Source of the DNA: Anaerolineales bacterium
Lineage (GTDB): Bacteria; Chloroflexota; Anaerolineae; Anaerolineales; UBA11579
Reading direction: 5' to 3'
Assembly: GCA_040902205.1 (NCBI GenBank)
Contig: JBBDXR010000028.1
Coordinates: 7,390-71,389, forward strand
Length of the DNA stretch: 64,000 nucleotides
A program made the translations under genes and the position numbers. Under the pieces are notes generated by a model. It did not search any database. It had not been told where the DNA came from and saw nothing but the letters and a program-made list of their open reading frames with translations. Each line of letters opens with the position of its first letter. Positions within the stretch are counted from its first letter, which is position 1. This document shows, one piece after another, positions 17,469 to 19,486 of this stretch.

Positions 17469-18125
17469 ATGGCGCCAGTTGTGATGCATGGGTTTGATGT
17501 TCCTTTTATCGCAATTGAAGGAATTGATGGTTCAGGAACATCAACACAGACCCATCTTTTGACCAATGGTTTAAGAAATAAGGGTTATAAAGTATTTATT
17601 ACTCAGGCTCCTAGCGCTAGTCTTTGGGGTGGTCGCATTAGGCTTGTACTAAACAAGCAAACCCTTGTTGATCCCTTGGGTTTAGCTTTTGCATTTATGG
17701 CTGATCGAGTATCACACCTTTCAAGAGTTCAATCGGAATTGCAGGCGAGATCGGATGATTTGCTGGTGAGCGGGAGGCTGCATTTGTCTTTTTTGGCCTA
17801 TCAACATCGGCATACTAGGAAGAAAATGGAATGGTTGTCGAACTTATTAAAATGGCTGCCATTTCCCGATGTCACTTTCTTCATTGACGCAGATCCGGAC
17901 GAATGCTACGCACGAATAAAAAAGAGATCAGGCCAAGACATCTTCGAAAGCGCCTATTCTCTTCGAGCGATGAGAGACGGTTTTTTTGAAGCTATAAGCT
18001 TCATGACATCAAAAGGGCAGAAAATAATCACCGTTCCAGGAAAGGATCATGTTTTAGAAATTAGCGCACTTATATTGTCGCATGCACAGGACGAACTGGG
18101 AAGGATAGGAAGGAAGGCACAATGA
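17469..18125 (+). CDS. thymidylate-kinase-like protein B (P-loop Lys replaced by Thr; DRY and REP motifs lost)
   Basis: FIAIEGIDGSGTSTQ P-loop with ACA (Thr) at 17538-17540. FMADRVSH and PDVTFFIDADPDE are Tmk-like. QAP and GRL replace REP and DRY. It starts 3 nt after the stop of gene A. Confidence 0.7.
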   Translation: MAPVVMHGFDVPFIAIEGIDGSGTSTQTHLLTNGLRNKGYKVFITQAPSASLWGGRIRLVLNKQTLVDPLGLAFAFMADRVSHLSRVQSELQARSDDLLVSGRLHLSFLAYQHRHTRKKMEWLSNLLKWLPFPDVTFFIDADPDECYARIKKRSGQDIFESAYSLRAMRDGFFEAISFMTSKGQKIITVPGKDHVLEISALILSHAQDELGRIGRKAQ

Positions 18126-19486
18126 CTTCAAACATAATAGCAGGGAAGGATTTATCGGACTTAGTCAGGCAAACCGTTGATTCTGATTCCTCAGACGCAG
18201 AGTATGACCCGGAATTAATTTCCGGTTACTTTTATACACTTCGCGTTGGCAAAAAAGCCTACCTTGCAAGAACACCTGCCGGGCAGGAGCAAGCAATAGA
18301 AATTAAATTCACAAAGCCTCTCAGATTACAGGGGGACAGGGAAGTTGTGCTTAGAAGTTTGGAAAGCTTTAAAAAAATACCAGACGATATTTATGGCGAA
18401 TTGAGCTTAAATCCTGAATTGGCGAAAATGGGTGTAGTCCTTATTGCACCTTCAAAGTTTTACCCAGGGGTAATAGGATTTCCTCATTTTATTATTAGCA
18501 ATTTAACCTACTCAAACGTTGTGCTAAACCTCGGCGACAAGCTTGTTGACGTTCAATTTTTTCGACTAAAGGAAAAAATCACTGAAATATCATCGCCCTT
18601 CTGGAGCTTTGGAAGGCCAAATTTGCCTGTTCTGACTAAACCGGAGAAAATGGTGGATTCCTTTCCGGCTGTTGAGGCGAGTGTAAATCTACTCAGACAA
18701 GAACACGATGAGCTTAAGCGTGTTGTAACGGAAATTTCAAGTTACGGGTACTACAAACCTCATGGTACACCGCCCGATTCTACGTACACAAAAGATCCGA
18801 TCGTTAATCTAAAAAGCAATCCTTTGTTTTCCCAAAATTCAAGTCGCCCTACCAAAGTTGTTTCAGGCACGACGACAACGATTGATACAGTACCAGCTTT
18901 AACACTGTCAAAAAATGTCCTCGTTGAAGTCATCCCCTCAAACTTCCTAACAAAAAACTGCATACAGTTGCTTACCAAGGCTATTCCATCTGGGTACAAT
19001 GGAAACATCACTCTCCAGCTATACAACTATGGCTTAGAGGACTTGAATATCCCAGATGATGAAATTCTTGCATTTGCTAAACTAACCCAGATGGGCCTAA
19101 TAGCATTTTCGGAAGGTGAGGAGGTTTTAAGAGACAATCAAGATTTACCTGATTCAAAAGGAGTTCACTATTCAACCGCCGAGGTGCGGAAAATGCTCGG
19201 GGGCTTTGAAGACAAATTAAAGGATTATGATGCAAAGATAAACGCTGATCGGAGAATCATCGACCTATTCTTTATGGCCGCAATCGCCGGAATAATCGCA
19301 GGTGTTTTTATAACGTTAATCACTTCTCTTACAAGGACTGAAAATACAATTCAAGGCATCGTAAACCCCAAAAATATCGCGATTTTCCTTGGAGTAACTA
19401 TTCTAGTTTCACTCGCTGTAATGGAGTTCTGGAAACTTAGAAGCAAGAAGGAACATAATGATCAACCAAATGAAAACTCTCACTGA
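18122..19486 (+). CDS. membrane-anchored protein with tandem dCTP-deaminase/dUTPase-like beta-barrel domains
   Basis: Domain 1 (aa 1-150): IIAGKDLSDLV, YFYTLRVGKK, ...YPGVIGFPHFIISNLTYSNVVLNLGDKLVDVQFFRL follows the Dcd pattern. Domain 2 (aa ~255-325): IPSGYNGNITLQLYNYGLEDLNIPDDEILAFAKL. Two TM helices lie at aa 379-403 and 418-437. ATGA overlap with gene B. Confidence 0.65.
   Translation: MTSNIIAGKDLSDLVRQTVDSDSSDAEYDPELISGYFYTLRVGKKAYLARTPAGQEQAIEIKFTKPLRLQGDREVVLRSLESFKKIPDDIYGELSLNPELAKMGVVLIAPSKFYPGVIGFPHFIISNLTYSNVVLNLGDKLVDVQFFRLKEKITEISSPFWSFGRPNLPVLTKPEKMVDSFPAVEASVNLLRQEHDELKRVVTEISSYGYYKPHGTPPDSTYTKDPIVNLKSNPLFSQNSSRPTKVVSGTTTTIDTVPALTLSKNVLVEVIPSNFLTKNCIQLLTKAIPSGYNGNITLQLYNYGLEDLNIPDDEILAFAKLTQMGLIAFSEGEEVLRDNQDLPDSKGVHYSTAEVRKMLGGFEDKLKDYDAKINADRRIIDLFFMAAIAGIIAGVFITLITSLTRTENTIQGIVNPKNIAIFLGVTILVSLAVMEFWKLRSKKEHNDQPNENSH

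Follow-up and report, generated by a model that had tools for sequence, protein, structure and literature searches.

The window analyzed here is a 64,000-nt stretch of contig JBBDXR010000028.1 from an Anaerolineales bacterium. It contains a low-GC island with an operon of four co-directional, tightly packed genes, in the order TmkA′, TmkB′, DCD-DCD-2TM, X. The first two genes encode paralogs of thymidylate kinase (Tmk), the third encodes a protein that joins two domains of the dCTP deaminase (Dcd)/dUTPase fold to a C-terminal hairpin of two transmembrane (TM) helices, and the fourth encodes an orphan protein. The TmkB′ stop codon overlaps the start codon of the third gene in an ATGA configuration. 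Textbooks describe both dUTPase/Dcd and Tmk as soluble enzymes that contribute to dTTP synthesis. We describe the product of the third gene (the “window protein”), the module to which it belongs, and the functions that this module may have.

Two DCD/dUTPase-fold domains and a membrane hairpin

The window protein is 454 aa long and consists of two DCD/dUTPase-fold domains, two helical linkers, and the C-terminal membrane hairpin. An initial annotation, made by reading the sequence, had assigned a dCTP deaminase pattern to residues 1–150, a second barrel core to residues ~255–325, and two TM helices to the C-terminus. The open reading frame (ORF) and all peptides quoted in that annotation are present in the 454-aa translation, and each of the three assignments is borne out by the analyses below. 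Domain 1 matches the Pfam DCD family PF22769 (E = 8.2e-6; 26.4 bits, slightly below the 27-bit cut-off), NCBIfam TIGR02274 dCTP_deam (E = 1.5e-8), and, in a sequence search of the PDB, the Thermococcus pacificus dUTPase 8y1w (E = 1.5e-5). As a single sequence, domain 2 gives only weak matches to TIGR00576 (dut; E = 0.011) and to the T5 dUTPase 8qky (E = 0.007). A profile of the second domain, built from the window protein and six homologs from the window-like group of relatives (“group A”), matches 8y1w with E = 2.5e-14. A profile of 19 family domains matches 8y1w with E = 1.7e-30 and Mycobacterium tuberculosis Dcd:dut with E = 4.6e-14; overall, PDB DCD structures are matched by the family profile at 1.7e-30 to 1e-10.

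Structural modeling leads to the same fold. AlphaFold was uninformative with the single sequence (predicted local distance difference test [pLDDT] score of 37), and a usable model of the monomer was obtained from a 10-sequence multiple-sequence alignment, with pLDDT scores of 70–89 for domain 1, 62–76 for domain 2, and 55–77 for the C-terminal helices. The top Foldseek match of this model is the two-domain Agrobacterium tumefaciens protein 2r9q (E = 2e-11, ~380 columns aligned), a match that extends across both domains. Superposition on 8y1w gives a TM-score of 0.80 (normalized to the target) and a root-mean-square deviation of 2.7 Å, and the Foldseek probability is 1.00 for both 2qlp and 1xs1. 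Thus, the beta-barrel of Dcd is recovered by sequence, profile, and structure comparison, as is the fold of the trimeric dUTPases (Dut/archaeal DCD-type), for which 8y1w is the top match by sequence and structure. Dut enzymes are homotrimers whose active sites lie between subunits, and from the shared fold, we infer that the DCD-like domains trimerize. In the inter-domain linker, the alignment of long family members keeps a “PELV..V..L” segment.

The two C-terminal hydrophobic segments have 19-residue Kyte-Doolittle means of 2.65 (aa 379–403) and 2.23 (aa 419–437). Both are long helices in the AlphaFold model, with the juxtamembrane segment and TM1 forming one helix (aa 352–405). Basic residues flank the hairpin on both sides (DRR ahead of TM1, KLRSKK behind TM2), consistent with an N-in/C-in topology. 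C-terminal hydrophobic segments are found in almost all relatives, and the homologs close with RRRR/KRK tails. TM1 of the window protein carries a small-xxx-small motif, AAIAGIIAG, with the family form “A(G/A).AGI.AG”. The juxtamembrane helix and TM1 are the best-conserved segment in the family, with conservation scores of 0.56–0.61, whereas the enzyme-fold domains score 0.48 and TM2 scores 0.31. Conservation in excess of that of the enzyme-fold domains argues that the membrane segment is functional and more than an anchor. We considered and rejected the possibility that the hairpin is a SLATT two-TM effector domain: NCBIfam SLATT_1 scores are 17.7–21.6 bits against a 41-bit cut-off, SLATT_1 is matched at E < 1 by just three of ten family C-termini, and Pfam SLATT gives no match. 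SLATT proteins and this family share a two-helix hairpin topology, but such a topology is generic.

To map catalytic residues, we used a profile alignment to M. tuberculosis Dcd:dut (“IDPGFSGHITLELSN”), in which the strand with the catalytic Glu reads “ITLELSN”. The Glu position was defined as N−3, i.e., three residues ahead of an invariant Asn. Domain 1 has Ile124 at this position (HFIISN) and domain 2 has Gln299 (ITLQLYN), in agreement with the initial by-eye alignment, and the Glu of the “(T)LE(L/F).N” strand is absent from every family member. The motif-III Asp of “IDPG” is replaced by Tyr114 in domain 1 and by Pro289 in domain 2, while the Arg-Ser phosphate clamp of “LRS” is replaced by Asn97-Pro98 and Ser273-Asn274, respectively. 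Neither domain, then, has the Arg-Ser(-Ser) triphosphate motif and “IDPG” Asp of Dcd, or the motif-III catalytic Asp and phosphate-binding residues of the trimeric dUTPases. Archaeal DCD-type dUTPases, the nearest solved relatives, also lack the deaminase Glu (8y1w has “LTLMLFN”); hence, loss of the Glu alone excludes only deaminase chemistry, not all activity. It is the loss of the motif-III Asp and the Arg-Ser clamp from both domains that marks the window copy as a pseudo-enzyme. Judged from these residues, both DCD/dUTPase-fold domains of the window protein are catalytically dead. Because Anaerolineae relatives (those of a second group, “group B”, and single-domain short forms) retain “LRS” and “IDPGY.G”, other family members may still bind ligands or even hydrolyze them.

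Comparison with solved proteins shows which parts of this architecture have precedents. The best match for both domains is to archaeal DCD-type dUTPases (T. pacificus 8Y1W; “P45”, 9LN0/9LN3; Sulfolobus tokodaii 2YZJ/2ZDC). Like the window protein, these enzymes have no deaminase Glu. However, they are soluble, single-domain proteins of ~155 aa that keep the Arg-Ser and Asp-Pro-Gly motifs, whereas the window protein has two domains that have each lost both motifs, along with helical linkers and a TM hairpin. The dCTP deaminases and Dcd:dut enzymes (E. coli 1XS1, M. tuberculosis 2QLP, and Methanocaldococcus jannaschii 1OGH) share with the window protein the fold and an N-terminal “Y.LR.G” and “PG..G....N” framework. 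They differ in having the catalytic Glu (E138, E129, and E145, respectively, versus Ile124 or Gln299) and the phosphate-binding and Asp residues, and the window protein is membrane-anchored. Two-domain proteins are known from A. tumefaciens (the “dCTP deaminase” 2R9Q) and from herpesviruses, whose monomeric dUTPases (Epstein-Barr virus 2BSY) and their inactive paralogs (betaherpesvirus UL72-like) have the same tandem arrangement. The window model aligns across both domains of these proteins over ~290–385 columns, with an identity of just 9–13%. Neither 2R9Q nor the herpesvirus dUTPases have a TM segment, a coiled-coil stalk, or Tmk-like partners, and the duplication in the window family is probably independent of theirs. 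A recent internal duplication was ruled out, since BLASTP detects no similarity between domains 1 and 2 (E > 6); the duplication must therefore be ancient, and it is common to the entire ~450-aa subfamily. The initial annotation called a membrane-tethered tandem pseudo-deaminase unusual; the tandem duplication, given 2R9Q, 2BSY, and UL72-like proteins, is not novel in itself. Inactive dUTPase paralogs of herpesviruses are also a precedent for the non-enzymatic re-use of dUTPase folds.

The operon and its low-GC island

Coordinates of the operon, its neighbor, and the regions of the window protein are listed in Table 1. Both TmkA′ and TmkB′ have the thymidylate kinase fold and dTMP-site motifs, and the two genes match PDB Tmk structures with E-values down to 1e-14. 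Neither has the lysine of the P-loop GxxxxGK(S/T). In TmkA′, which shares 36% identity with the first module gene at the related locus L001, the P-loop is fully degenerate (“FEYADGGNASYF”, reading DGGNAS). In TmkB′, the P-loop reads EGIDGSGTSTQ, versus EGIDGSGKSTQ in Thermotoga maritima Tmk (3hjn), i.e., the Lys is replaced by Thr. TmkB′ keeps the F.ADR..H and AYQ motifs; its DRY motif reads GRL, with loss of the DRY Asp. Gene X has no match in Pfam, PDB, PADLOC, NCBIfam, or PHROG, and is similar to the fourth gene of the L001 module (BLASTP E = 8.8e-8). A fourth gene is kept in group A modules.

Table 1. Features of the operon, its island, and the window protein (positions in the window; L001 is a related locus)
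Feature	Position	Strand	Size or details	Basis
Low-GC island with the four-gene operon and the 5′ end of divergent PYNP	16300..20250	.	~3.9 kb	Composition
Pyrimidine-nucleoside phosphorylase (PYNP), divergent neighbor	15357..16661	−		66% identical to L001 PYNP; Pfam domains of the L001 ortholog
TmkA′, thymidylate-kinase-fold paralog	16725..17465	+	246 aa	Pfam Thymidylate_kin, 4.6e-11
TmkB′, thymidylate-kinase-fold paralog	17469..18125	+	218 aa	Pfam, 2.1e-29; TIGR00041, 3e-27
Tandem pseudo-DCD/dUTPase protein with C-terminal TM hairpin	18122..19486	+	454 aa, ATG start	
Domain 1, DCD/dUTPase beta-barrel	18122..18571	+	aa 1–150	Pfam, NCBIfam, and PDB matches; model
Inter-domain linker	18572..18742	+	predicted helix, aa 181–206	AlphaFold secondary structure
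Domain 2, shortened DCD/dUTPase barrel	18743..19096	+	aa 208–325	Domain-2 profile; weak single-sequence matches
Juxtamembrane helix into TM1	19172..19330	+	aa 351–376 into aa 379–403	Model, hydropathy, conservation
TM2, followed by basic tail KLRSKK	19376..19432	+	aa 419–437	Hydropathy, model
Gene X, orphan	19458..20102	+	214 aa; 29-nt overlap with preceding gene	BLASTP to L001 fourth gene

The GC content of the island is 35–43% (about 40%), as compared to 59–66% on either side and 60–63% for the genome. GC content at third codon positions (GC3) shows the same difference, with values of 0.34–0.39 in the four operon genes and 0.75–0.76 in the flanking DegV and TPR genes. The divergent PYNP gene is a mosaic: GC3 is 0.34 for codons 1–50, 0.52–0.60 for codons 51–150, and 0.70–0.80 thereafter, such that the 5′ ~100–150 codons share the composition of the island. 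This gradient places the left edge of the acquired segment inside PYNP. A breakpoint at this position is expected if the segment was exchanged by homologous recombination with DNA from a donor in which PYNP and the module were arranged alike. The composition of the low-GC island indicates that it was acquired horizontally. No tRNA, integrase, transposase, or flanking direct repeats were found at the island, and promoter and terminator scans gave only background-level signals. Downstream synteny with L001 was considered and dropped, as the 1,076-aa TPR/BTAD protein in the window is not homologous to the 1,051-aa TPR protein at L001.

A rare family with linked Tmk-like genes

The family emerged from an exhaustive HMMER scan across 1.84 billion cluster representatives; word-indexed homolog searches, whether started from the protein or from the family alignment, recovered nothing beyond the query and a single relative. 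The scan gave 24 matches at E < 1e-3, of which about ten are proteins of 436–469 aa with the same architecture. A group A profile has no matches in 185,579 species genomes and is represented by only four metagenome loci. A group B profile identifies seven loci in the species genomes, from Anaerolineae, Dehalococcoidia, and one Acidobacteriota metagenome-assembled genome (MAG). The two Dehalococcoidia loci are distant, PurA-linked relatives (of the type of loci L023 and L024). All recovered loci in which Tmk-like genes precede a DCD-like-TM gene come from uncultured lineages, and those with a name belong to Anaerolineae and one Acidobacteriota.

A phage origin was considered and rejected. There are no family members among the viral contigs of IMG/VR, where the group B profile gives 21 weak matches over short stretches (about 50–110 codons) that we assume to be ordinary phage dUTPase/Dcd genes. 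A fragment of PYNP is the sole match to phage DNA, and PHROG matches are generic.

The most consistent feature of these loci is that one to three Tmk-like genes lie directly 5′ of the DCD-like-TM gene in every related locus recovered (L001–L013, L018–L022, and L046–L048). The P-loop Lys is absent from all Tmk-like proteins of the module, with T, S, L, or I in its place or with a fully degenerate P-loop. Two types can be distinguished: the P-loop of the “B” type keeps “EGLDGAG(T/S/L/I)TTQ”, whereas that of the “A” type has degenerated. All of these proteins have F.ADR..H, a motif that canonical Tmks do not have, and the dTMP-site motifs F.ADR..H, DRY, and AYQ are kept by the Tmk-like proteins of most relatives. 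The TmkB-type genes of group B (L005, L008, L010, L012, L019, and L020) encode an additional conserved C-terminal domain of about 100 aa, “IPYGYQ...FY.TG”, which neither the window-like group nor canonical Tmk has.

In group A, all three informative loci have a thymidine-salvage gene next to the module. PYNP adjoins the module in the window and in L001–L003, and thymidine kinase (TK) does so in L004, where a relaxase gene is also adjacent and a DUF2958 gene is near. Module proteins of the window and L001 are 22–40% identical, versus 66% for PYNP. At another locus (L015, that of family protein P0002), a family-4-type uracil-DNA glycosylase (UDG) gene lies at 321–1145, ~1.7 kb upstream, and genes for PYNP and NDK lie downstream; this uracil/thymidine-themed neighborhood may or may not be meaningful.

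Several modules lie close to canonical tmk genes. A canonical Tmk (GSGKTS) is encoded immediately downstream of the module in L020, an Anaerolinea MAG. The modules of L008, L020, and L047 share a chromosomal position: each follows a SpoIIIAA-like/R3H gene, with tmk, gmk, and priA close by. Truncated remnants of canonical tmk, with P-loops GTGKST and GAGKST, lie directly 5′ of the Lys-less Tmk-like gene in L022 (~8950–9250) and L047 (4810–5337), respectively, and holB follows the module in L022. The remnants and the position of holB suggest that the module was inserted into a tmk locus or arose there.

Family variants differ in domain number, TM content, and neighbors. They include single-domain short forms of about 220–290 aa. 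In L012 (1900–4055), a single-domain DCD-like-2TM gene (258 aa) and a tandem-domain paralog (>446 aa) follow one another in one operon. An Anaerolineae variant (L019, 7720–10931; L021, 7706–14858; and L018) has three Lys-less Tmk-like proteins and a DCD-like protein of 171 aa without TM segments. The next genes in this TM-less variant encode a KAP/AAA_16-like ATPase of 481–508 aa with a hydrophobic insert, and a 959-aa protein with NACHT and FGE-sulfatase domains. Among more distant relatives, a DCD-like-2TM gene in L024 is clustered with genes for an IrrE/M78 peptidase, a kinase-PurA-like fusion, and a DUF7002 protein; a PurA-like gene is directly 5′ of the DCD-like-TM gene in L023; and dCMP-deaminase-like and radical-SAM genes are beside the DCD-like-TM gene at the P0013 locus.

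Elsewhere in the window, a second patch of lower GC content (~49–52%; 58984–60959) contains an ORF of the Dam-like DNA methyltransferase type (296 aa, “DPPY”) that overlaps a 362-aa ORF; the two may be a restriction-modification pair. Another small foreign insertion seems to be present at 32001–33269, where an isolated 422-aa ORF on the minus strand, in a patch of ~50% GC, separates a GGDEF-like gene from the genes for triose-phosphate isomerase and phosphoglycerate kinase. Two tandem repeats were also observed. One, with 3.7 copies of a 42-nt unit (23769–23921), is in the intergenic/small-ORF region after the TPR/BTAD gene, and the other, with 3.3 copies of a 48-nt unit (13671–13829), lies in the gene for ribosomal protein S16, where it specifies the Ala/Pro-rich C-terminal tail.

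Possible functions of the module

Sequence comparisons across these loci define a module that is conserved, rare, and, in at least some cases, mobile. Its components are a membrane-anchored tandem pseudo-dUTPase and Lys-less Tmk paralogs, to which group A adds an orphan protein. The literature searched holds no description of this architecture or operon. What is new is the context, i.e., the Lys-less Tmk paralogs, the orphan gene, and the low-GC island, rather than the duplication.

Our favored reading, to which we give a probability of roughly 40%, is that the window protein belongs to a trimeric sensor of pyrimidine deoxynucleotides that controls a membrane effector, probably as a conflict or defense module of the abortive-infection type. 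Given that the DCD/dUTPase fold trimerizes, three chains would form two trimeric rings, one stacked on the other, carried by a stalk of three helices, with a six-helix membrane bundle below. Such a module would report on ligands of the dTMP/dTTP/dUTP type, or on proteins that target the corresponding enzymes. Sensing would occur through the Tmk-like subunits, with a contribution from DCD-like pockets in less degenerate relatives, and the signal would cause a change in the membrane bundle, e.g., ion leak/depolarization or signaling. The biological role would most likely be detection of phage remodeling of the thymidine-nucleotide pool.

A role in conflict is favored by a family that is rare, patchy, and fast-diverging, by the foreign composition of the island, and by the combination of a sensor with TM helices. 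It is also favored by the company of STAND/KAP and IrrE proteins that some relatives keep, and by the precedent of dTTP as an infection cue: in the Clover system, the dGTPase CloA is activated by dTTP, and a rise in dTTP during phage infection serves as an immune cue (PMC12265719). The Clover proteins themselves, an HD dNTPase and a nucleotidyltransferase with no membrane component, are unrelated to the window module. The relaxase gene beside the L004 copy and the breakpoint inside PYNP are further support. Several observations weigh against the sensor-effector reading. The neighbors of the operon in the window are housekeeping genes rather than defense genes, and no PADLOC model matches any DCD-like member; the window protein, X, and five relatives have no match in PADLOC-DB v2. 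Matches of the Tmk-like proteins to PADLOC PDC-M51B/VakA were rejected as generic because a canonical housekeeping Tmk scores higher on these models. The shared chromosomal position of L008, L020, and L047 looks vertically inherited, and similarity to the SLATT pore domain is far under threshold. Lastly, the nucleotide-contacting residues are gone from both DCD-like domains of the window copy, so that nucleotide binding is not assured and direct sensing by this subunit is doubtful. The initial annotation had suggested that nucleotide binding is coupled to a membrane function. Conservation of TM1 and the juxtamembrane helix, and the invariable position of the gene after paralogs of nucleotide enzymes, fit this suggestion; the lost ligand-contacting residues of the window protein do not.

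The closest parallels in logic are the TM effectors of nucleotide-based immunity. Pycsar PycTM, the two-TM effectors of CBASS (Cap14/Cap15), SLATT proteins, and Cam1/Csx23 of type III CRISPR systems combine a sensor with a TM effector. As proposed here for the window module, a soluble, ligand-binding, oligomeric head is joined to one or two TM helices, and nucleotide-processing enzymes are encoded next door. In contrast to these systems, the head of the window protein has a dUTPase fold, its hairpin is C-terminal, and its partners are Lys-less Tmk paralogs rather than cyclases. A dUTPase fold as the sensor head of a TM effector was not found in PADLOC models or in the literature searched. A bolder proposal, which we consider possible but on balance doubtful, is an immune or surveillance module built wholly from inactivated enzymes of pyrimidine-deoxynucleotide metabolism. 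The Lys-less Tmks would act as sensors of dTMP-type ligands or as decoys for phage factors, and the trimeric pseudo-dUTPase would open a six-helix pore that kills or arrests the infected cell.

The same genes could have a housekeeping role, and this alternative, although we rate it as somewhat less likely, is a serious rival with substantial evidence on its side. The module would be a membrane-anchored regulatory or scaffolding complex that senses dTMP/dTTP/dUTP and tunes pyrimidine deoxynucleotide salvage, with no immune function, and it might, for example, be coupled to nucleoside uptake, to PYNP/TK/Tmk flux, or to replication at the membrane. Thymidine-related genes adjoin every informative group A module, NDK and family-4 UDG genes are near the P0002 module, and the relatives at the tmk locus, whether beside an intact gene (L020), upstream of holB (L022), or behind remnants (L022 and L047), would be in keeping with such a role, as would the place after the SpoIIIAA-like/R3H gene that three loci share. 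Because the breakpoint lies inside PYNP, the PYNP linkage also appears to have been retained through horizontal transfer. A housekeeping complex is, however, hard to reconcile with a family that is extremely rare and patchy, with a module that is clearly foreign DNA in the window, and with module proteins that have diverged from those of L001 so much faster than PYNP. Moreover, strong conservation of a TM helix that carries a packing motif is seen more typically in pores and effectors than in anchors, and some relatives are linked to STAND/KAP NTPases.

Two other explanations have less in their favor. That the operon is addiction-type cargo of a small mobile element targeting tmk/PYNP loci, with a membrane toxin restrained by the Tmk-like proteins and X so as to stabilize the island, strikes us as improbable. 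The recombination breakpoint in PYNP, the truncated tmk remnants in L022 and L047, the relaxase and DUF2958 genes near L004, and the tight translational coupling of the four genes would all be expected of such cargo; set against them are the absence of integrase, transposase, and flanking direct repeats at the island, the lack of similarity to known toxin-antitoxin families in Pfam, PADLOC, NCBIfam, and PHROG scans, and the stably chromosomal appearance of several loci. Least probable of all is a still-active, membrane-bound dUTPase/dCTP-deaminase-like hydrolase that works with unconventional kinases and non-canonical residues, with a modified pyrimidine nucleotide as a possible substrate. Activity is argued against by the loss of the motif-III Asp and Arg-Ser clamp from both domains, by linkers in place of the C-terminal arm with which this fold closes its active site, by the missing P-loop Lys in both Tmk-like proteins, and by the loss of the DRY Asp from TmkB′. 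This holds even though the nearest solved relatives (8y1w and 9ln0) are genuine archaeal dUTPases without the deaminase Glu, the “LRS” and “IDPGY.G” motifs are retained in group B and the short forms, and other DCD-like-TM relatives adjoin PurA-like, dCMP deaminase, and radical-SAM genes.

In this operon, two folds known from enzymes of dTTP synthesis appear as conserved pseudo-enzymes tied to a membrane hairpin in mobile DNA. Most of the interest is in the operon as a whole, with its two Lys-less Tmk paralogs, orphan gene, low-GC island, and PYNP linkage. The clade of Tmk paralogs that keeps “GAG(T/S)TTQ”, with T or S in place of the P-loop Lys, would represent either a novel mode of phosphate binding or a dedicated ligand sensor. 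If the module does sense thymidine/deoxyuridine nucleotides or phage factors, it would be a new sensor-effector architecture, and it would extend the emerging theme of dNTP-pool perturbation as a cue for infection. If the pore proposal is correct, the dUTPase fold would join SAVED, CARF, and cNMP-binding domains as a sensor head of membrane effectors. If, instead, the role is housekeeping, the module would point to a membrane-linked layer of control over pyrimidine salvage in Chloroflexota.

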